Virus record (IMG/VR): IMGVR_UViG_2563366906_000002
Origin: a virus
Lineage: Duplodnaviria; Heunggongvirae; Uroviricota; Caudoviricetes
DNA length: 11,161 nt
Direction: 5' to 3' (one strand)
Shown: positions 75-8,961 of the stretch, in pieces
Position numbering within the stretch: the stretch's first letter is position 1
Layout: each line of letters begins with the position of its first letter
Program-made: the position numbers and the translations under genes
The notes under the pieces: model-generated
What the model was told of the DNA's origin: nothing
Databases searched by the model: none
The model's input: only the letters and a program-made list of their open reading frames with translations

Positions 75-137
75 CCCGAAAAAGAGCCAGTCAGTTGCTT
101 AACTGACTGGCATTACCCCTTAGGGGGTGATTTTTTT
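75..137. terminator. Terminator-like hairpin cluster at the backbone/cargo boundary, possibly bidirectional
   Basis: Perfect inverted repeat CCAGTCAGTT-gctt-AACTGACTGG (87-110, extendable to an 11-bp stem 86-111). On the minus strand it is followed by a U-rich tract (complement of CCGAAAAAGAG, 75-85). A second short stem CCCC-tta-GGGG (116-126) is followed by T7 (131-137) on the plus strand. Confidence 0.4.
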
Positions 138-304
138 ACATGACTTTTGATTAGCTGACATTGTAAATCCGCATGTATCAGATGCATTGTTTTGCATGTG
201 GAAATGGGTGTTTTCACTGCCAGCTATCGCTACATGTAGCAAAAACACGGGCTTAATAAGAAATCATTCTGCCATAAGGCATAACTTCCCCGCGTGCTCA
301 GGTA

Positions 305-334
305 TTGACGTCATAGATATGGATCTTTTTTAAT
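305..334 (+). promoter_or_regulatory. Candidate sigma70-type promoter for the TIR-domain gene
   Basis: TTGACG (305-310) with TTTAAT (329-334) after an 18-nt spacer. The fit is weak because an AAGG ribosome-binding site (335-338) sits immediately downstream. By-eye assignment only. Confidence 0.2.
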
Positions 335-348
335 CAAGGTATGGTATT

Positions 349-1296
349 ATGAAGATATTTATTAGTTGGTCAGGTCAGGACAGCCTGGAGATAGCAAAAG
401 TATTACGGGATTGGATACCGAATGTTATTCAAGTAGCTGAGCCGTACGTATCAGCGGAAGATATTGATAAAGGCACTCGCTGGGCGACTGATATATCAAA
501 GGAACTTGATGACTCTTCTTATGGGATTATTTGCCTTACAAAAAATAATATTAATGCACCGTGGATAAATTTTGAGGCGGGTGCTTTAGGTAAAAAGGTT
601 GATAAGAGCCGGGTTAGTCCTTTCTTGTTTAAAATTAAACCATCTGAGATAACAGGCCCAATATTACAATTCCAGTATACTCGTTCGGATGATAAGAACG
701 ATATTTTGAAGTTGATGTTGTCAATAAATAATCAAGCAGGATTTTTGACTGAAGAACGCTTAACTAAAGCTTTCGAGCAATGGTGGCCAAGTTTAGAGCG
801 TGAGTTAGATAACATTCAAGATATTAACCCTGTAGATAAAGATTCCACTAAAAAAACAAAAGGTGATTCGACTTCTGAGATACAAAATCTTTCCAAAATT
901 GTTGAAAGTTTGCTGGATATTAGCCGAACAAATCACCAATTATTGCGTGATCCAGCATCATTATTGCCAGAAGAATATGTTAGCAAAATAATAAACAGGG
1001 AAGGGCGTAAAGAAACTGTTTTAAAAATTGTAGCTTCTGATTTATTATCCATGCATCATTCACTAATTCGTGTAAAAAGAAGATTTATTCGCCGTGGTAT
1101 TGATGAAACATCTAGGAGCGAGTTAATTGAATCATTAAATAAAATGATAATGGATTGTTCTAGAGTAATCGCTCACTTAGATAATTATTGTGGGGTTTCA
1201 TCAAACAATATGTTCAATAGTGCGCTTAGATTGCGGACCAGAAATTTAATTGACATGATGGATGAGGAGGATGCAGAACGGGATGAAATGGAATAA
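349..1296 (+). CDS. TIR-domain protein (about 130-aa N-terminal TIR-like domain plus about 185-aa predicted helical, charged C-terminal domain of unknown function)
   Basis: 315-aa ORF with ATG at 349 and AAGG 10 nt upstream. The N-terminus MKIFISWSGQDS...AKVLRDWI...GTRW...YGIICLTKNNINAPWINFEAG follows the bacterial TIR pattern: hydrophobic-FIS-aromatic-S start, then a W-x3-E motif with the putative catalytic Glu at residue 76 (nt 574-576). The C-terminal half matches nothing I recognise. AT-rich codon usage differs from the P2 backbone. Confidence 0.75.
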   Translation: MKIFISWSGQDSLEIAKVLRDWIPNVIQVAEPYVSAEDIDKGTRWATDISKELDDSSYGIICLTKNNINAPWINFEAGALGKKVDKSRVSPFLFKIKPSEITGPILQFQYTRSDDKNDILKLMLSINNQAGFLTEERLTKAFEQWWPSLERELDNIQDINPVDKDSTKKTKGDSTSEIQNLSKIVESLLDISRTNHQLLRDPASLLPEEYVSKIINREGRKETVLKIVASDLLSMHHSLIRVKRRFIRRGIDETSRSELIESLNKMIMDCSRVIAHLDNYCGVSSNNMFNSALRLRTRNLIDMMDEEDAERDEME

Positions 1297-1347
1297 TCAA
1301 TTTTGACTAATCATAAATAATTTTGCATATATAAACTTATAATGCCG

Positions 1348-1370
1348 CAGCCGCTATTTTTCAGCGGCTG
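1348..1370 (+). terminator. Hairpin downstream of the TIR gene, possible weak intrinsic terminator
   Basis: CAGCCGCT (1348-1355), 7-nt loop, AGCGGCTG (1363-1370), 52 nt after the stop codon. The 3' flank TATATCGTTTATAAT is only moderately U-rich, so termination efficiency is uncertain. Confidence 0.3.
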
Positions 1371-1858
1371 TATATCGTTTATAATGGGTATGTTATTTTT
1401 TATTTTGATAAAATCATTAAAATTGTCGATGTTATATGAATGCACATGTATTATTAATGTTAGAAGATTATGCCTGCTTACGGCTATTGTGCTGAATTCA
1501 ACTATGAACGCATCAGTATTAAAATCGTTCCATGAAATGTTCTTCGTCTACAGCAGATGATGGGCAACGAAAAAATGACGCTGAGTGAGTTGGTCGGGGA
1601 GAATTGTTAGAGGTATTTATGGAGTGGTTTAATAATATCGGTCAATCCTGAGTTGCAGCATCACATAGACGATAGGGAATCTCTCCAGTCGTTCTGGAAT
1701 GGCAGCGTTGAACAACAAGCACAGCGAGGCGTTAGATGCCCATCAGATTGACACAGAGGGTTTATGAATCGCTGGGATTTACTTAGTTTGAAAAATAATA
1801 TATTTATATGTTTTTGTATTGTGTTTGTTAAGGAGTTTGGATTGAAAAGAAAACTGAT

Positions 1859-2047
1859 TTGTGTTATGGCTTTTTGGGGGCGTTGCTGGCTGGTTGTAAT
1901 GAGAGTAATAAAAAAGAAGTTGAGGGTTGTATTGAAAGAGGTGTCCAATATTTTATAGAGATTGGTTCTTACCCTAAATTAAGTGATGGGCGTGATGCTG
2001 TGAAAGTTGCTACTGAACGTTGTAATAGAACAATAACGGCTTTCTGA
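1859..2047 (+). CDS. Small putative lipoprotein (lipobox LLAGC, mature part about 50 aa with three Cys); start codon uncertain
   Basis: The frame contains ...GFLGALLAGC|NESNKKEVEGCIERGVQYFIEIGSYPKLSDGRDAVKVATERCNRTITAF. Its stop (2045-2047) is 2 nt before the ATG of the next gene, indicating translational coupling. In-frame starts are non-canonical: ATT at 1841 (5 nt after an AAGGAG Shine-Dalgarno at 1830-1835) or TTG at 1859. The adjacent frame starting TTG 1842 encodes a textbook n-region MKRKLICVMAF and would join this frame via a 1-nt change in the T5G5 run at 1871-1880. Confidence 0.45.
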   Translation: MCYGFLGALLAGCNESNKKEVEGCIERGVQYFIEIGSYPKLSDGRDAVKVATERCNRTITAF

Positions 2048-2049
2048 TA

Positions 2050-2967
2050 ATGGATTATACGAGCTATATAATAGGACAGCTTCAGGTTGAGGATATTATT
2101 GATGCAATTAAAGGCGTTAATAATACTAATGTCATAAAAGATTATGTGCTGCCTGTAGTATTACCAATTATATCTTCTGTGCTGAGTTACTTTATTGCAA
2201 CTAGGTTGTTTTATCGGCAGGAGTACCTTAAAGCACAAAGAAGAAAGGTAAGCGTTGTAAATAAATGTATTTATGACTACTTTTCTGCAATGACAACGTT
2301 GTTGCAAATTAAAGGGAATTATTATGGTGGGGTAAGTATAAGTGAAAATCCTATCGAGAGGGCTTTAGCTTTTCCTGTTGTGGTTTTTTCTGGTGCTCCT
2401 CTATCATCAGATTTAAGTGAGTTTGCCTGTATATTGAGTCAAAAGGGAGTAGGGAATAATAGAGAGACAGCAAAGACTACTAACTGGGGGGATGCTTTTG
2501 CTGTTAGTGATATAGCAAGAAGGTTTAACAGCCTATTGGCTGCATTAAATGTTAGGAATGATTTTGATGACACCTATAGAGGAATGATTATTGAATCAAC
2601 AGGTTCACCTTTGCCTACGATGCGTTTTAAAAATGATGATATTGTTAATGCTATAGGTAGTAATAAGGCAGCTTATTACATTGATATTACTGAGCAAATA
2701 ATGATTATGATAGATGTTTTGTTGCTTGATATTAATCTGTTGCTCAAAGAGTTGCCATTGTATGCTGAATCGCTGTTTGACAAAAGAGTAATGCAAGAAG
2801 ATTCAGGGATTCTTAAATTCAATGATTTGCACGAACGTTTTCCTCTACTTATGAAACCTGTAACGCCACCTTCGATTAAACTCATGTCTGATTATTTGGG
2901 GTACAGTGAAGATGAGATCTTACGACGCTATCCATACCCGTTCTTTAATATGCATGATTGTGAATGA
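2050..2967 (+). CDS. Hypothetical single-pass membrane protein, 305 aa (N-terminal transmembrane anchor, family unknown)
   Basis: ORF with ATG at 2050 and no own Shine-Dalgarno, coupled to the upstream small ORF. One strongly hydrophobic segment YVLPVVLPIISSVLSYFIATRLFY (residues ~32-55) is followed by basic residues (RQEYLKAQRRK). AT-rich codon usage. No motif I can assign. Confidence 0.7.
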   Translation: MDYTSYIIGQLQVEDIIDAIKGVNNTNVIKDYVLPVVLPIISSVLSYFIATRLFYRQEYLKAQRRKVSVVNKCIYDYFSAMTTLLQIKGNYYGGVSISENPIERALAFPVVVFSGAPLSSDLSEFACILSQKGVGNNRETAKTTNWGDAFAVSDIARRFNSLLAALNVRNDFDDTYRGMIIESTGSPLPTMRFKNDDIVNAIGSNKAAYYIDITEQIMIMIDVLLLDINLLLKELPLYAESLFDKRVMQEDSGILKFNDLHERFPLLMKPVTPPSIKLMSDYLGYSEDEILRRYPYPFFNMHDCE

Positions 2968-3071
2968 ATGTGCATATGTCAGAAGCCGTTTTTATTGTCA
3001 GTTATCGTCAGTGCTGGCGCGCTCTTGGAGTGTTCATGCAACTGCATTAAAACCGCCCCACGAAGCGGGCG

Positions 3072-3090
3072 GGCGAGGCGGGGAAAGCAC
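3072..3090. other. cos: cos cohesive-end sequence of P2-type phages
   Basis: GGCGAGGCGGGGAAAGCAC matches my recollection of the 19-nt P2 cohesive end. It lies ~160 bp beyond the 3' end of the leftward portal gene, as in P2. Recalled, not database-checked. Confidence 0.55.
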
Positions 3091-3220
3091 TGCGCGCTGG
3101 CGGTGGTGATGATTGTCTGAGCGCGTCGTGATGGCGTTTAGATTGTGCGCCGGGGCGTTGGTGTGTCTGCGGGGTGTTTTGTACAGTGGCGAGCGTGTGA
3201 GGGCGTGATGACGGGGGTGT

Positions 3221-3242
3221 AAAAAAGCCGCCCGCAGGCGGC
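3221..3242 (-). terminator. Intrinsic terminator of the P-Q operon
   Basis: On the minus strand, stem GCCGCC-tgcg-GGCGGC followed by T6 (plus strand reads A6 at 3221-3226, then GCCGCC cgca GGCGGC). It begins 5 nt after the Q stop codon. Confidence 0.5.
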
Positions 3243-3247
3243 GATGT

Positions 3248-4282
3248 TCAGCCGTTGTCAGTGTCCAGTGAGTAGTTTTTAAAGCGGATGACCTCCTGAC
3301 CGAGCCAGCCGTTTATTTCCCGAATCCTGTCCTGTAACGGGATAAGTTCATTGCGGACAAAGACCTTTGCCACTTTCTCAATATCGCCCAGCGACCCGAC
3401 GTTTTCCGGCTTGCCACCCATCAACTGAAAGGGGATGCGGTGCGCGTCCAGCAGGTCAGCGGCGCTGGCTTTTTTGATATTAAAAAAATCGTCCTTCGTT
3501 GCCACTTCACTGAGCGGGATAATTTTAATGCCGTCGGCTTTCCCCTGTGGGGCATAGAGAAACAGATTTTTAAAGTTATTGCGGCCTTTCGACTTAACCA
3601 TGTTTTCGCGAAGCATTTCGATATCGTTGCGGTCCTGCACGGCATCGGTGACGTACATGATGTATCCGGCATGTGCGCCGTTTTCGTAATACTTGCGGCG
3701 GAACAGCGTGGCCGACTCATTCAGCCAGGCAGAGTTAAGGGCGCTGAGATATTCCGGCAGGCCGTACAGCTCCTGATTAATATCAGGCTCCAGCAGGTGA
3801 AACACGGAGCCGGGCGCGAAGGCTGTCGGCTCGTTGAAGGACGGCACCCACCAGTAAACATCCTCCTCCACGCCACGACGGGTATATTTGGCCGGTGAGG
3901 TTTCCAGTCTGATGACCTTACCGGTGGTGCTGTAACGCTTTTCCAGAAACGCATTACCGAACACCAGAAAATCCAGCACAAAACGGCTGAAATCCTGCTG
4001 GGAAAGCCACGGGTGCGGGATAAACGTTGAGGCCAGAATATTACGTTTGACGTAAATCGGTGAGCTGTGATGCACGGCAGCACGCAGGCTTTTTGCCAGA
4101 CCGGTAAAGCTGACCGGTGGCTCATACCATCTGCCGTTACTGATGCACTCGACGTAATCCAGAATATCACGGCGGTCGAGTACCGGCACCGGCTCACCAA
4201 AGGTGAATGCCTCCATTTTCGGGGCGCTGGCAGTCATTGTTTTCACCGCTGGCTGCGGTGTTTTCCCTTTTTTCTTACTCAT
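3248..4282 (-). CDS. Q: Portal protein (P2 gpQ-like)
   Basis: 344-aa ORF starting MSKKKGKTPQPAVKTM..., recognised as P2 portal protein Q, with the same length as P2 Q. Its ATG overlaps the stop of the upstream terminase gene (ATGA). Confidence 0.95.
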   Translation of the reverse strand: MSKKKGKTPQPAVKTMTASAPKMEAFTFGEPVPVLDRRDILDYVECISNGRWYEPPVSFTGLAKSLRAAVHHSSPIYVKRNILASTFIPHPWLSQQDFSRFVLDFLVFGNAFLEKRYSTTGKVIRLETSPAKYTRRGVEEDVYWWVPSFNEPTAFAPGSVFHLLEPDINQELYGLPEYLSALNSAWLNESATLFRRKYYENGAHAGYIMYVTDAVQDRNDIEMLRENMVKSKGRNNFKNLFLYAPQGKADGIKIIPLSEVATKDDFFNIKKASAADLLDAHRIPFQLMGGKPENVGSLGDIEKVAKVFVRNELIPLQDRIREINGWLGQEVIRFKNYSLDTDNG

Positions 4283-6054
4283 CAGTAAAACTCCAGAATG
4301 GTGGATGTCAGCGGAGTGCTGATACCGGCGGTGAGTGGCTCATTTAACAGGGCGTGCATGGTCGCCCAGGCGAGGTCGGCGTGGCTGGCTTCCTCGCTGC
4401 GGCTGGCCTCATAGGTGGCGCTGCGTCCGCTGCTGGTCATGGTCTTGCGGATAGCCATAAACGAGCTGGTGATGTCGGTGGCGCTGACGTCATATTCCAG
4501 ACAGCCACGACGGATAACGTCTTTTGCCTTGAGCACCATTGCGGTTTTCATTTCCGGCGTGTAGCGGATGTCGCGTGCGGCGGGATAGAACGAGCGCACG
4601 AGCTGGAACACGCCGACACCGAGGCCGGTGGCATCAATACCGATGTATTCGACGTTGTATTTTTCGGTGAGTTTGCGGATGGATTCAGCCTGGGTGGCAA
4701 AGTCCATGCCTTTCCACTGGTGACGCTCAAGTATTCTGAATTTGCCACCGGCCACCACCGGCGGTGCCAGTACCACGCATCCGGCGCTGTCGCCACGGTG
4801 TGACGGGTCGTAACCAATCCATACCGGGCGGGAGCCGAACGGATTGGCGGCAAACGGCGCATAGTCTTCCCATTCTTCCAGCGTGTCGACCATGCAGCGT
4901 TGCAGCTCCTCGAACGGGAACACCGACGCCTTGTCGTCAACAAATTCACACATGAACAGGTTTTTAAAATCGTCGGCGCTGTTTTCGCGTTTGAGCTGCT
5001 CAATGTCGAACAGCGTGCAGCCACCTTTCAGGGCGTCCTCAATGGTGACAATCTGCCGCCACTGGCCGTCCGCACAGAGAAGCCCTCCGGCAAGGGCGTT
5101 ATGACTGACGTCGATTTCCACGCGTTCGGCGGCGCTGGCGCGTCCCCGGTTGAACAGTTCACCTGACCAGAACGGGTAGGCGTCGTGCGCCAGCGTGGAC
5201 GGGGTGGAGAAATAGGTCGAACGCAGGTGACTCTGTGAGGCCATACCTGATGCCACCTTACGCAGTACCTGAAAATTCGGGATCCAGAAAATCTCGTCGA
5301 CGTACAGGTCGCCGTTATGGCTCTGTGCGGTGTTGGAGTTGGTGCCGAGAAAAATCAGTTTTGCGCCGTTATTGCCCAGGACAATCGGGTCACCGGTCAG
5401 GTCAACGTCAACCAGACGGGCAAAGGCGATGATGTATTCGCGGAACACATACGCCTGCGTTTTACTGGCCGACAGAAAAATCTGGTTATGACCGGTTTTC
5501 AGGGCACGCAGCAGCGCCTCGCGGGAAAAATAAAACGTTGCGCCAATCTGGCGGGATTTCAGGATATCGCGGATGCGGTGCTCAAGCCCGGCGCGATACC
5601 AGTGCAACTGATAGTCGAAAGACTGCTCAAAGAAAATCTGCTCCAGCTTTTCGATGGCTTCGTCGCTGAAAAAATTCTTTTTCGGTTTGCGCCGCCCGCC
5701 TTTGTTGCGGTTAGCGATGTTCGGATTAAGGTCTGCCTCGTTGCCGGTCTGACTGTAGCGGTTGACCCGTGCCAGTCGTTCAATCTGGCGTCCCAGCAGG
5801 TCAATTTCCTTGAAGTCACCGCCGGTTTTCTGCGGTTTGATGATGAGCTGGGTCAGCCGCGCTTCCAGACTCATTTCGACACGGCTGATGGGGGCAACGC
5901 TGTCCCAGCCGTCGCGCTGTTTCCAGCTCTGCACCGTCGGGCGTTTCATCTGCAACATGGCGGCAATCTGCGGCACGGAAAACCCCTGCCAGTACAGCAG
6001 CGCCGCCTGACGACGCGGGTCGTGTAAAAGAGTGGTGTCTGTGGTGATGGTCAT
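4282..6054 (-). CDS. P: Terminase large (ATPase) subunit (P2 gpP-like)
   Basis: ORF-track entry 4282-6084 begins at a TTG. The ATG at 6052-6054 (protein MTITTDTTLLHDPRRQ...) is preceded by GGCGAGG and gives 590 aa, the P2 gpP length. Large-terminase-like content; sits upstream of and coupled to Q. Confidence 0.93.
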   Translation of the reverse strand: MTITTDTTLLHDPRRQAALLYWQGFSVPQIAAMLQMKRPTVQSWKQRDGWDSVAPISRVEMSLEARLTQLIIKPQKTGGDFKEIDLLGRQIERLARVNRYSQTGNEADLNPNIANRNKGGRRKPKKNFFSDEAIEKLEQIFFEQSFDYQLHWYRAGLEHRIRDILKSRQIGATFYFSREALLRALKTGHNQIFLSASKTQAYVFREYIIAFARLVDVDLTGDPIVLGNNGAKLIFLGTNSNTAQSHNGDLYVDEIFWIPNFQVLRKVASGMASQSHLRSTYFSTPSTLAHDAYPFWSGELFNRGRASAAERVEIDVSHNALAGGLLCADGQWRQIVTIEDALKGGCTLFDIEQLKRENSADDFKNLFMCEFVDDKASVFPFEELQRCMVDTLEEWEDYAPFAANPFGSRPVWIGYDPSHRGDSAGCVVLAPPVVAGGKFRILERHQWKGMDFATQAESIRKLTEKYNVEYIGIDATGLGVGVFQLVRSFYPAARDIRYTPEMKTAMVLKAKDVIRRGCLEYDVSATDITSSFMAIRKTMTSSGRSATYEASRSEEASHADLAWATMHALLNEPLTAGISTPLTSTILEFY

Positions 6055-6227
6055 GAATACCTCGCCGTGATGAATACACGGCAAGGCTACTGAGTCGCGC
6101 CCCGCGATTCGCTAAGGTGCTGTTGTGTCAGTGATAAGCCATCCGGGACTGATGGCGGAGGATGCGCATCGTCGGGAAACTGATGCCGACATGTGACTCC
6201 TCTAATCACTATTCAGGACTCCTGACA
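6055..6227. promoter_or_regulatory. Divergent late-promoter region between P (leftward) and O (rightward)
   Basis: 173-bp intergenic region between divergently transcribed late operons. In P2 this interval carries the Ogr-dependent promoters for the PQ and ONML... operons. I could not pin down the individual promoter elements by eye. Confidence 0.5.
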
Positions 6228-7140: not shown

Positions 7141-8214
7141 ATGCGCCAGGAAACCCGCTTTAAATTTAATGCCTACCTGTCCCGTGTTGCCGAACTGAAC
7201 GGCATCGACGCCGGTGATGTGTCGAAAAAATTCACCGTTGAACCGTCGGTCACCCAGACCCTGATGAACACCATGCAGGAGTCCTCTGACTTTCTGACCC
7301 GCATCAACATTGTGCCGGTCAGCGAAATGAAAGGGGAAAAAATTGGTATTGGTGTCACCGGCTCCATCGCCAGCACCACCGACACCGCCGGTGGCACCGA
7401 GCGTCAGCCGAAGGACTTCTCGAAGCTGGCGTCAAACAAGTACGAATGCGACCAGATTAACTTCGATTTTTATATCCGCTACAAAACGCTGGACCTGTGG
7501 GCGCGTTATCAGGATTTCCAGCTCCGTGTCCGTAACGCCATTATCAAACGCCAGTCCCTTGATTTCATCATGGCCGGTTTTAACGGCGTGAAGCGTGCCG
7601 AAACCTCTGACCGCAGCAGCAATCCGATGCTGCAGGATGTGGCGGTCGGCTGGCTGCAGAAATACCGCAATGAAGCCCCGGCGCGCGTGATGAGCAAGGT
7701 CACTGACGAGGAAGGGCACACCACCTCTGAGGTCATCCGCGTGGGTAAGGGCGGTGATTATGCCAGCCTTGATGCACTGGTGATGGATGCGACCAACAAC
7801 CTGATTGAGCCGTGGTATCAGGAAGACCCTGACCTTGTGGTGATTGTGGGACGTCAGCTACTGGCGGACAAGTATTTTCCCATCGTCAACAAGGAGCAGG
7901 ACAACAGCGAAATGCTGGCCGCTGACGTCATCATCAGCCAGAAACGCATCGGCAACCTGCCAGCGGTACGCGTCCCGTACTTCCCGGCGGATGCGATGCT
8001 CATCACGAAGCTGGAAAACCTGTCCATCTACTACATGGATGACAGCCATCGCCGCGTGATTGTGGAAAACCCGAAACTCGACCGCGTGGAGAACTACGAG
8101 TCAATGAACATTGATTACGTGGTGGAAGACTACGCCGCCGGTTGCCTGGTGGAAAAAATTAAGGTCGGTGATTTCTCCACACCGGCCAGGGCGACCGCAG
8201 AGCCGGGAGCGTGA
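7141..8214 (+). CDS. N: Major capsid protein (P2 gpN-like)
   Basis: 357-aa ORF starting MRQETRFKFNAYLSRVAELNG..., recognised as P2 major capsid precursor N. Same length and position as in P2. Confidence 0.95.
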   Translation: MRQETRFKFNAYLSRVAELNGIDAGDVSKKFTVEPSVTQTLMNTMQESSDFLTRINIVPVSEMKGEKIGIGVTGSIASTTDTAGGTERQPKDFSKLASNKYECDQINFDFYIRYKTLDLWARYQDFQLRVRNAIIKRQSLDFIMAGFNGVKRAETSDRSSNPMLQDVAVGWLQKYRNEAPARVMSKVTDEEGHTTSEVIRVGKGGDYASLDALVMDATNNLIEPWYQEDPDLVVIVGRQLLADKYFPIVNKEQDNSEMLAADVIISQKRIGNLPAVRVPYFPADAMLITKLENLSIYYMDDSHRRVIVENPKLDRVENYESMNIDYVVEDYAAGCLVEKIKVGDFSTPARATAEPGA

Positions 8215-8217
8215 CCG

Positions 8218-8961
8218 ATGACGAGTCCCGCACAGCGCCACATGATGCGGGTCTCGGCAGCGATGACCGCGCAGCGGGAAGCCGCCCCGCTGCGACATGC
8301 AACTGTCTATGAGCAGATGCTGGTCAAGCTGGCCGCAGACCAGCGCACACTGAAAGCGATTTATTCAAAAGAGCTGAAGGCCGCGAAAAAACGCGAACTG
8401 CTGCCGTTCTGGTTGCCGTGGGTGAACGGCGTGCTGGAGCAGGGCAAAGGTGCACAGGATGACATTCTGATGACGGTCATGCTGTGGCGTCTGGATACCG
8501 GCGATATTGCCGGTGCGCTGGAGATTGCCCGTTATGCCCTGAAGTACGGTCTGACCATGCCGGGTAAACACCGCCGCCCCCCGCCGTACATGTTCACCGA
8601 GGAGGTGGCGCTCGCGGCCATGCGTGCTCACGCTGCCGGTGAGTCTGTGGATACCCGCCTGCTGACGGAGACCATTGAACTGACCGCCACGGCTGACATG
8701 CCTGATGAAGTGCGCGCAAAGCTGCACAAAATCACCGGTCTGTTTCTGCGTGACGCTGGTGATGCCGCCGGTGCGCTGGCTCACCTGCAACGTGCGACAC
8801 AGCTCGACTGTCAGGCAGGCGTCAAAAAAGAGATTGAACGACTGGAGCGGGAGCTGAAACCGAAGCCGGAGCCGCAGCCAAAAGCGGCCACCCGTACCCC
8901 GCGTAAGACCCGGAGCGTGACACCGGCAAAACGTGGACGCCCGAAAAAGAAAGCCAGTTAA
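8218..8961 (+). CDS. M: Terminase small (endonuclease) subunit (P2 gpM-like)
   Basis: 247-aa ORF 3 nt after the N stop. Position and length match P2 gpM; basic Pro/Lys-rich C-terminal tail. Confidence 0.92.
   Translation: MTSPAQRHMMRVSAAMTAQREAAPLRHATVYEQMLVKLAADQRTLKAIYSKELKAAKKRELLPFWLPWVNGVLEQGKGAQDDILMTVMLWRLDTGDIAGALEIARYALKYGLTMPGKHRRPPPYMFTEEVALAAMRAHAAGESVDTRLLTETIELTATADMPDEVRAKLHKITGLFLRDAGDAAGALAHLQRATQLDCQAGVKKEIERLERELKPKPEPQPKAATRTPRKTRSVTPAKRGRPKKKAS

Follow-up and report, generated by a model that had tools for sequence, protein, structure and literature searches.

In phage T4, the inner-membrane protein Imm and the periplasmic protein Sp jointly exclude the DNA of superinfecting phages; Sp is a non-lipoprotein and Imm is devoid of any large cytoplasmic helical domain. 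The two-component spanins (Rz/Rz1, and LysB/LysC of P2), like the gene pair described here, associate a small lipoprotein with an inner-membrane protein of the single-pass type, the two genes lying side by side in the phage; the i-spanin exhibits a periplasmic coiled coil and the o-spanin gene is located within or after the i-spanin gene. In P2-like phages, the interval comprised between gpA and the portal gene, occupied by old/tin in P2 itself, is an anti-phage hotspot with a known role in the competition between viruses (PMC9122126). The 2TM+1TM+TIR system of phage P2_AC1 (Rousset et al. 2022, PMC9122126; DefenseFinder Rst_2TM_1TM_TIR) occurs in this hotspot, and the defence of the AC1 lysogen against lambda and LF82_P8 was reproduced by a three-gene clone devoid of the gene pair considered below (PMC9122126).

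The window, i.e., the whole stretch of 11,161 nucleotides that was analysed, corresponds to a P2-like prophage sharing 99.9% identity with P2_AC1. Between gpA and the portal gene Q, and more precisely between the TIR gene and cos/portal, it harbours two adjacent genes, a small gene with a lipobox and a gene for a 305-aa membrane protein, in agreement with the initial annotation, which regarded them as phage-encoded; the lysis genes are located at about 9.8-11 kb. The GC content of the cassette (35-37%) differs from that of the phage core (~57%). In the prophage of E. coli MS 16-3, which lacks TIR, the homology with the window starts at 1692 and amounts to 97% over 1692-3097. A Shine-Dalgarno sequence AAGGAG occurs at 1830-1835, 6 nt ahead of TTG 1842, and a terminator-like hairpin is found at 1347-1371, 3' of the TIR gene. 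Most likely, the region 1692-2967 consists of a self-contained, horizontally acquired two-gene accessory cassette, the features of which are listed in Table 1. An IS4 element has also been inserted in the same gpA–portal hotspot.

Table 1. Coordinates of the features of the two-gene cassette in the window.
Feature	Position	Strand	Evidence
Conserved upstream leader of the cassette; left boundary and presumed own promoter region	1692..1841	+	MS 16-3 homology
Lipoprotein gene, 5' part in the original frame: TTG start, signal-peptide n-/h-region MKRKLICVMAFWG	1842..1880	+	Alignment with EC17CM6 and MS 16-3; translation
G5 homopolymer, shorter by 1 nt than the G6 of intact alleles (deletion causing the frameshift)	1876..1880	+	Run-length counts
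Lipoprotein gene, 3' part, out of frame: lipobox LLAGC, mature domain, stop TGA 2045-2047	1881..2047	+	Translation, PHROG 32041
Single-pass inner-membrane protein, 305 aa, all-alpha domain of ~250 aa predicted to be cytoplasmic	2050..2967	+	ORF, PHROG 21267, AlphaFold
Transmembrane helix codons, residues 33-55 VLPVVLPIISSVLSYFIATRLFY	2146..2214	+	Hydropathy maximum at residue 33

The LLAGC frame reported for the small gene is indeed present, its Cys codon being TGT 1895-1897 and its stop preceding ATG 2050 by 2 nt. The start assigned to it at 1841 proved to be an ATT, which is no start codon, and the earliest canonical start of this frame, TTG 1859, yields MCYGFLGALLAGC; with a Cys at residue 13 and a region devoid of K/R in place of a basic n-region, this product does not offer a credible lipoprotein signal. 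Alignment with the relatives places the true start at TTG 1842, at a position where MS 16-3 exhibits an ATG, and in another frame than the LLAGC of the window. When read as in the intact relatives, this start encodes MKRKLICVMAFWG-ALLAGC-NES…, the relatives themselves encoding MKRKLICVMAFWGALLAGC followed by N. According to the run lengths counted in the window and in the relatives L001-L004 and L040-L042, EC17CM6 associates a TTG start with a G6 run and MS 16-3 an ATG start with T7G4, with respect to which the G5 of the window represents a -1 frameshift. From 1842, the frame of the window runs into a stop at 1958 and gives a 38-aa product, and a single G added in silico exactly restores the 68-aa lipoprotein. 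The lipobox and the mature domain thus lack a proper start because G5 shifts the frame, and the N-terminus 'IEKKTDLCYGF' read in the initial annotation turns out to be the true signal peptide translated in the wrong frame. Since the lipoprotein gene is frameshifted, the description of a translationally coupled small lipoprotein does not apply to the window copy.

The G5 allele is common to the window, P2_AC1, E. coli M21816 and two IMG/VR contigs, and the matched span measures 1268 nt in M21816 as compared to 1269 nt in 13 other complete genomes. A sequencing error was discarded as the cause of the frameshift, G5 being found in five independent assemblies, including the Illumina/SPAdes genome of AC1. 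A canonical start, a basic n-region, an uncharged h-region and the motif [LVI][ASTVI][GAS]C with its Cys at residue 15-35 (a rule of the PROSITE PS51257 type) are all found in the relatives (MKRKLICVMAFWGALLAGC, MNKNVFYMAVITLFLLSGC and MNKNTFYIIVIATFLLSGC). The window copy departs from this rule, in that the frame opened at 1842 loses the lipobox past G5 and the lipobox frame only starts at ATT 1841 or TTG 1859. Depending on the genome, the small gene is annotated as encoding 94, 80, 68 or 54 aa, or is left uncalled.

The mature domain of the small protein consists of 49 aa with two further conserved Cys residues, and the protein matches PHROG 32041 at 7e-31. Residue +2 is Asn in the clade to which the window belongs, of the CNE type, and Asp in the two other P2 clades, of the CDD/CDN types. 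Asp at +2 is an inner-membrane retention signal in E. coli lipoproteins and, as the clades differ at this position, the lipoprotein may be anchored to either the inner or the outer membrane.

The 305-aa protein matches PHROG 21267 at 8e-149. The single N-terminal transmembrane anchor previously attributed to it is confirmed by a unique, strongly hydrophobic segment at about residues 33-55 (Kyte-Doolittle mean 2.04). An AlphaFold model built from an 81-sequence alignment (pLDDT 88.5, pTM 0.81) displays an all-helical domain, with the transmembrane segment included in the start of a long helix 28-97; the model derived from three sequences only (pLDDT 56.9) was unusable. The segment is flanked by two K+R residues on its N side and six on its C side, and the C-flank is the more basic one in 63 of the 81 family members. 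This charge bias, which is the sole basis of the topology, predicts an N-out/C-in orientation with the helical bundle located in the cytoplasm. No Shine-Dalgarno sequence precedes ATG 2050, and the large gene probably relies for its translation on the coupling provided by a stop codon located 2 nt upstream. A HEPN-like reading of a conserved 'RN' motif was rejected, His being absent at +5/+6 in every aligned member.

With respect to its distribution, the pair is rare and patchy (19 of 5,426 E. coli genomes), and every one of the 19 complete E. coli genomes possessing either gene has both, side by side. The pairs fall into three clades with a mutual identity of 52-60%, and homologues of the 305-aa protein share 99%, 56% and 53% identity with it. 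Four hotspot contexts were distinguished, in which the pair accompanies 2TM+1TM+TIR, a 333-aa hypothetical gene, or a 433-aa HEPN-like/DzbB-like gene, or stands alone between gpA and Q, E. coli CP058063 offering such a pair-only cassette. This constant adjacency, maintained across diverged clades and four contexts, supports the view that the two genes form a functional pair. The envelope-located two-gene module proposed earlier is accordingly retained as regards the pairing and remains plausible as regards the location, owing to the lipobox of the intact relatives and to the single transmembrane segment. The features themselves go beyond chance, since diverged relatives show conservation of both proteins at the protein level and each of the two is part of a wider family. 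All enterobacterial copies of the pair reside within the P2 defence hotspot. Outside the P2 clade, the two families were never found adjacent, and their partnership is therefore recent.

The 305-aa protein had been described as lacking any recognisable motif, and it remained without match in Pfam, NCBIfam, PADLOC, PDB and BFVD. The PDB profile search returned no match at E<=10, and Foldseek searches with the model gave nothing significant (best E 0.13 in PDB and 0.056 in BFVD). The 81 family members yielded scattered single chance matches only in Pfam and PADLOC. The three ORF readings of the small protein were without match in Pfam, NCBIfam and PADLOC, where no member of either family gave a significant match, and the small protein has no counterpart in PDB or BFVD either; both PHROG families (32041 and 21267) are of 'unknown function'. 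The literature searched for these protein accessions and for P2 lipoprotein exclusion contained nothing on either gene. A word-indexed homology search retrieved just two clusters for the large protein and five for the small one; a full HMM scan brought the 305-aa family to 199 clusters at E<=1e-3, nearly all of full length (270-320 aa), with members outside the P2 group occurring as solo genes in bacterial chromosomes. Among the eight contexts of distant homologues that were inspected, several are of the defence-island or mobile type: the neighbours comprise RES toxin genes, an integrase, and HipA together with AAA_23/helicase genes, one homologue is placed 3' of hsdS in a type I RM operon, and some are located among housekeeping/metabolic genes. 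Similarly, the mature domain of the lipoprotein is conserved in the P2-type relatives and recurs in many Proteobacteria as a solo protein, in some cases in mobile contexts and in others among metabolic genes.

The interpretation that we favour, with a probability of about 0.5, regards the cassette as an independent anti-phage cassette built around the membrane protein and degenerate in the window copy. An anti-phage role is inferred from the record of the hotspot (PMC9122126) and from the neighbourhoods of the distant homologues. According to this scheme, the 305-aa protein would consist of a short, acidic, amphipathic N-terminal helix predicted to face the periplasm, a transmembrane helix and a cytoplasmic helical bundle of ~250 aa, and would act as an anti-phage sensor/effector at the inner membrane, either through abortive infection or by preventing entry. 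Within the enterobacterial P2 clade, this core gene would have acquired the 68-aa lipoprotein as a partner, whose 49-aa mature domain, periplasmic and probably closed by a disulfide, may tune or trigger the membrane protein from the periplasmic side through a putative contact with the N-terminal helix. The G6-to-G5 frameshift in the signal-peptide region inactivates the lipoprotein gene of the window and also removes the stop-2nt-ATG coupling. Most likely, the cassette of the window is defective or operates at a reduced level, because the lipoprotein is frameshifted and the coupling has been lost for a large gene devoid of Shine-Dalgarno sequence. We also infer that the lipoprotein is not an essential antitoxin, since the large ORF has remained intact in the five independent assemblies in which the small gene is frameshifted. 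A more speculative extension, which we hold only tentatively, would be that the 305-aa proteins form a new family of ~200 clusters (50% identity) of single-gene, membrane-anchored, helical-bundle anti-phage proteins of defence islands, the members of which in the P2-like prophages of Enterobacteriaceae have recruited a periplasmic, disulfide-bonded lipoprotein as a trans-envelope co-sensor. In such a case, an event at the envelope, e.g., the penetration of a phage tail or the entry of DNA, would be signalled by the pair to an effector in the cytoplasm or the membrane, a two-compartment sensing logic of which we know no example among the described defence systems.

Other explanations have to be weighed against this independent cassette. 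By analogy with T5 Llp or phi80 Cor, an outer-membrane lipoprotein (the default location with Asn at +2) could mask a receptor or block DNA entry, with the 305-aa protein as a helper, much as Imm is associated with Sp in T4. The canonical lipobox and the tightly conserved two-Cys mature domain of the intact relatives would suit such a superinfection exclusion, as would a prophage-borne location in a hotspot of inter-viral competition (PMC9122126), and the occurrence of the lipoprotein domain alone in many Proteobacteria implies that it is able to act without the large protein. We nevertheless consider this explanation unlikely, given that neither protein has any sequence match with the Sie, Cor or Llp families in Pfam or PHROGs, that the large-protein family is more widespread in defence-like contexts and works solo, that a frameshifted allele persists in five assemblies, and that Asp at +2 in two of the three P2 clades predicts an inner-membrane retention ill-suited to the masking of an outer-membrane receptor. 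A lysogenic-conversion or housekeeping envelope function unrelated to phages (stress, adhesion, membrane maintenance), or else a decaying, functionless remnant, would account for the lack of match with any defence family, for the distant homologues of both proteins found among metabolic genes, and for a hotspot in which the small gene is a pseudogene and an IS4 has been inserted. Such a role seems improbable for a cassette whose enterobacterial copies are all confined to the P2 defence hotspot, whose rarity and patchiness fit a defence cargo, which is strongly conserved at the protein level between clades, and several distant homologues of which have RES, HipA, RM or integrase neighbours.

The initial annotation had also considered the membrane partner as a possible membrane-acting effector of the upstream TIR protein; in this reading, the pair would belong to the TIR system and be switched on by a nucleotide signal made by TIR. 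In the AC1-type hotspot, the pair directly follows TIR and shares its strand, and an activation by TIR of the transmembrane proteins associated with it has been proposed by Rousset et al. (PMC9122126). The partners meant are, however, two other genes located upstream of TIR (126 and 185 aa), which have their own PADLOC models (2TM-TIR at 6.9e-58 and 1TM-TIR at 2.7e-75) and make up, together with TIR, the validated AC1 system, also matched by the model TIR-TM at 2.7e-118; neither the 305-aa protein nor the small ORF, in any of its three readings or in its relatives of 94 and 68 aa, has a PADLOC match even at E<=10. The forward pFD240 primer lies upstream of the 2TM gene and the reverse primer anneals by its 3' end to window 1659-1683, so that the cloned fragment which reproduces the lysogen's defence stops at 1683, 159 nt short of the small gene. 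As defence is reproduced without it, no role can be assigned to the pair, at least when frameshifted. The hairpin located 3' of the TIR gene and the homology block that begins at 1692, which moves independently of TIR, also argue against this explanation, as does the absence of TIR from three of the four contexts (MS 16-3/L042, L005 and L006/L019/L043, plus four ETEC genomes). It may be regarded as largely refuted and is very improbable, the cassette being most likely independent of the adjacent 2TM+1TM+TIR system. Equally hard to credit is a functional recoding or phase-variable site at the G5 run, by which the lipoprotein would be made at a low level or switched. A -1 slip on U-GGG-GGC would give the wild-type …FWG-ALLAGC… exactly, and the G5 allele is stable in the five assemblies; a programmed frameshift is nonetheless unlikely because no stimulatory structure occurs downstream (MFE -6.2 kcal/mol over 80 nt), G5/G6 runs are short for phase variation, and most copies possess G6, or T7G4, which maintains this frame in the absence of any long run of G.

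Many new anti-phage systems have come from the P2 and P4 hotspots, and the cassette adjoins a validated system in the tested phage AC1, although the clone did not include it and it is absent from the defence databases searched. If active, it would introduce a new family of membrane proteins, whose relatives in other bacteria number in the hundreds, and would offer a tractable example of an inner-membrane defence protein assisted by a periplasmic lipoprotein. It represents one more uncharacterised cargo of the hotspot, partly degenerate in the window. Since the AC1 allele is frameshifted, a G6 allele, such as that of E. coli EC17CM6 or D7, or else the pair-only cassette is to be preferred for experiments.

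Compared to the known systems, the closest neighbour of the pair is 2TM+1TM+TIR, which occupies the same hotspot, on the same strand and adjacent to it; both consist of small membrane proteins of P2-like phages whose mechanism is not known, but the pair matches none of the models of this system, lies outside its clone and is found without TIR. The four-helix-bundle sensor domains of chemoreceptors and histidine kinases (PilJ, Tar, TorS and NarX), as well as designed helical bundles, share 5-13% identity with the 305-aa protein, as generic up-down bundles; the sensor domains are periplasmic and inserted between two transmembrane helices, whereas the 305-aa protein has one such helix and a bundle predicted to be cytoplasmic. 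A spanin reading of the pair was rejected, since the pair lies outside the lysis cassette, the lipoprotein gene comes first and the predicted orientation is N-out/C-in, as opposed to the N-in/C-out orientation of i-spanins; in addition, its membrane protein is two times larger than usual and has homologues that occur as solo chromosomal genes. Like Llp of T5 and Cor of phi80/N15, the intact relatives of the pair encode a prophage-borne lipoprotein with a canonical lipobox and a mature part of ~50 aa. It differs from them in having no functional match in Pfam or PHROG, in having, in P2, a membrane protein as a constant partner, in a domain widespread outside phages and in the Asp +2 of two clades. 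No sequence or fold relationship was detected with Imm and Sp of T4, and the resemblance is a works-like analogy only, each being a phage-encoded association of an inner-membrane protein with a small periplasmic protein.

A small lipoprotein gene and the adjacent gene of a 305-aa membrane protein (the small and the large gene) constitute a real, autonomous module. Among the complete E. coli genomes (n=5,426), the window-type pair occurs in 15 and a diverged type in 4, and the two genes are adjacent in 19/19 positive genomes, none of which carries one alone. Three clades of the pair are distinguished, with identities of 99%, 56% and 52-53% for the large protein and 96%, 60% and 59% for the small one; the signal peptides have diverged across clades, but conservation is tight in the mature domains, where ERCNRTITAF is invariant.

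The gene order of the window corresponds to the left arm of a P2-like phage. Window 115-3071 matches the linear genome of Escherichia phage P2_AC1 (AC1; OV192280.1) at one of its ends and window 112-3247 a prophage of E. coli M21816, both with 99.9% identity. Because of these matches, and because the replication gene gpA stands immediately upstream of the region in related prophages, the pair is assigned to the gpA–cos–Q interval, in which P2 carries old and tin and which was shown to be a hotspot of anti-phage systems (Rousset et al., PMC9122126). The GC content is 35-37% across 349-2967 versus 56-57% in the phage core, as expected for acquired cargo. Two GC-rich, terminator-like hairpins occur close to cos, at 3053-3072 and 3227-3244 (minus strand); since the linear AC1 genome ends at window 3071, the first abuts the cos end.

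Coordinates of the genes and of the TIR-proximal hairpin in the window
Feature	Position	Strand	Evidence
TIR protein	349-1296		PADLOC TIR-TM 2.7e-118; Pfam TIR_2 7.5e-10
Terminator-like hairpin, 3' of TIR gene	1347-1371
64-aa ORF	1764-1958
Large gene, 305 aa	2050-2967
Portal Q	3248-4282	minus	ORF map
Terminase P	4282-6084	minus	ORF map
Scaffold O, capsid N, small terminase M, L, X, holin, lysozyme, lysA	beyond terminase P	plus	ORF map

The system validated from AC1 by Rousset et al. on plasmid pFD240 is designated 2TM + 1TM + TIR, and their Table S2 lists the TIR protein as protein 3, with "2TM in protein 1 and 1 TM in protein 2" (PMC9122126). The translated TIR ORF of the window reads identical to the pFD240 protein of that table in a by-eye comparison, and the window TIR gene is the third gene of this system. 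The AC1 genes of 126 and 185 aa upstream of TIR match the PADLOC profiles 2TM-TIR (6.9e-58) and 1TM-TIR (2.7e-75). The forward primer of pFD240 lies upstream of the 2TM gene; the reverse primer, in reverse complement, matches window 1659-1683 at its 3' end, so that the clone ends 159 nt short of the small gene. Taken together, this clone boundary, the upstream location of the system's own TM genes and the existence of TIR-less contexts largely rule out the pair as membrane effector of the TIR protein, one of the roles initially proposed. At its left end the window carries the 3' terminus of an IS4-family element (1-142; 95.8% identical to IS4 copies). The match takes in ~40 nt past the annotated transposase gene as well as its final ~100 nt, and AC1-like homology begins at 112-115, just 6-30 nt past where the 1TM-TIR gene of AC1 stops. 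This junction at ~112-142 therefore places IS4 between the 1TM and TIR genes in the source genome, an insertion that may uncouple or disable the 2TM+1TM+TIR system.

Four arrangements of the hotspot were encountered: gpA–2TM–1TM–TIR–pair–Q (AC1 type), gpA–DUF3850–hypothetical–pair–333-aa gene–Q (MS 16-3 and locus L042), gpA-like–pair–433-aa HEPN/DzbB-like gene–Q (locus L005), and the pair alone, gpA–pair–Q, in E. coli CP058063, E. albertii, locus L043 and four ETEC strains. The AC1 type and MS 16-3 are homologous from window 1692 onwards, which gives the cassette an upstream sequence of its own of ~150 nt. The 333-aa hypothetical gene (7646-8647 in MS 16-3), located at window-equivalent 3097-3115, had no family match. 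In the diverged P2-like hotspot of L005 (1808-3109; Logan SRR10403516 contig), the 433-aa protein following the pair displays an R-x4-H motif (MIRNTLVH), a Pfam MauJ match (3.6e-6) and a weak PADLOC DzbB match (2e-4), and is probably encoded by a separate HEPN-type defence gene.

The lipobox of the small protein is genuine, but the start initially proposed at 1841 is not, and the gene is frameshifted in the window. The codon at 1841 is ATT, the earliest canonical start in that frame being TTG 1859, and the N-terminus IEKKTDLCYGF results from an out-of-frame reading of the signal peptide. In E. coli EC17CM6 and MS 16-3, the start aligns to window 1842 (TTG; ATG in MS 16-3), 6 nt past AAGGAG/AAGGTG, and the encoded MKRKLICVMAFWGALLAGC|NESNKKEVEGCIERGVQYFIEIGSYPKLSDGRDAVKVATERCNRTITAF reads as a textbook lipoprotein precursor. 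The G-run at 1876-1880 comprises 5 G in the window versus 6 in EC17CM6, and MS 16-3 exhibits T7G4 with a total length equal to EC17CM6. The 1842 frame of the window therefore stops at 1958 (38 codons), leaving the lipobox and the mature domain in another frame, and one G inserted in silico restores a 68-aa protein. The 5-G allele is common to the window, P2_AC1, M21816 and two IMG/VR contigs (L040, L041). A sequencing error of a single assembly was rejected, since five assemblies have it. In 13 other complete E. coli genomes the matched span is 1 base longer and both genes are annotated, and an intact 94-aa call was found on 297 contigs. Depending on the genome, the RefSeq call is 94 aa, by extension to an in-frame ATG upstream, or 68 aa, and in 5-G genomes the gene is missing from the annotation. 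The upstream ATG, which yields the 94-aa call in 6-G genomes, opens in the window a 64-aa ORF (MNRWDLLSLKNN…) continuing into the frameshifted signal-peptide frame. This N-terminal extension is probably not translated, because a Shine-Dalgarno sequence precedes the TTG/ATG at 1842 and the PGAP call in MS 16-3 is 68 aa.

The domain of the small protein, ~45 aa with two conserved Cys, follows the pattern C…RG[VI]AYFKEIGSYPTL…ERCxRTxTAF. It carries no annotation and is broadly distributed across Beta-, Alpha- and Gammaproteobacteria and Gemmatimonadota (contig hits L020-L038), with hosts including Nitrosospira, Acinetobacter, Tepidiphilus, Sphingomonas, Massilia and Idiomarina. It is found there in solo lipoproteins and in secreted or TM-anchored proteins, mostly after a lipobox and in some cases fused to an N-terminal part with a zinc-ribbon/TM or a long coiled coil. 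The Telluria copy lies immediately 3' of a 624-aa ORF with an N-terminus resembling a P-loop ATPase motif (LVGPNNAGKSS). No member of the large family was found within 4 kb of these solo genes. The domain being solo elsewhere and always paired in the enterobacterial P2 clade, the partnership is specific to that clade and strict there. Asp at position +2 is a retention signal of the E. coli inner membrane; it occurs in two clades (CDD, CDN), and the membrane of the window-type lipoprotein is uncertain because it has Asn (CNE).

The large protein corresponds to its first description, with a single strongly hydrophobic segment (residues 33-55) and an ATG 2 nt past the TGA (2045-2047) that closes the upstream frame. 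Pfam, NCBIfam and PADLOC gave no significant match for either protein, PHROGs places them in families 32041 (small) and 21267 (large), both of unknown function, and 81 large-family members searched against Pfam and PADLOC gave only single chance matches; neither protein is a member of any described family. Among 1.84 billion representatives scanned in full by HMM, relatives of the large protein numbered 199 clusters at E<=1e-3, and 112 clusters reached E<=1e-10, almost all of 270-320 aa and aligned end to end at 20-27% identity, with Y32, P35, Q57, N71, L84, K88, Y91, P101, R104, N160, R169, E215 and D222 near-invariant. The AlphaFold model built with the family alignment (pLDDT 88.5, pTM 0.81) has a helix at the N-terminus (5-23), then a long one (28-97) that includes the TM segment; additional long helices (149-184, 204-242) are packed as a bundle. 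K+R residues are more numerous in the C-terminal than in the N-terminal TM flank in 63/81 members (means of 3.4 vs 1.9; 6 vs 2 in the window protein), and by the positive-inside rule the N-terminal helix is accordingly predicted to lie in the periplasm and the bundle in the cytoplasm. In the loci examined, the genes of distant members are solo, with no small lipoprotein found nearby; they adjoin RES-domain toxin genes (L009-L011) or an integrase (L014), stand near a HipA plus AAA_23/helicase pair (L012) or 3' of hsdS in a type I RM operon, or are surrounded by metabolic genes (L016, L017). We infer that the large family behaves like single-gene defence cargo.

The initial view holds in part, as to a two-gene envelope module of the phage, but not as to the TIR effector role. 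Judging from sequence and context, the chances are about even (roughly 0.5) that the pair represents an independent anti-phage cassette of membrane-protein-plus-lipoprotein architecture, and, within that reading, a membrane-acting abortive or sensor mechanism seems slightly preferable to pure receptor or entry blocking. The membrane-anchored helical protein would form the core of the module, with the lipoprotein as a periplasmic accessory that could touch its short periplasmic helix. That the lipoprotein is an antitoxin needed for tolerating the large protein is unlikely, since the large ORF remains intact beside the broken small gene in five assemblies. The frameshift probably also lowers translation of the large gene, because no Shine-Dalgarno sequence was found before the window-type gene, which begins 2 nt past the small-gene stop. 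The pair is absent from the only experiment on the AC1 phage, the pFD240 clone, and the kind of finding is a familiar one, that of uncharacterised cargo in a known defence hotspot.
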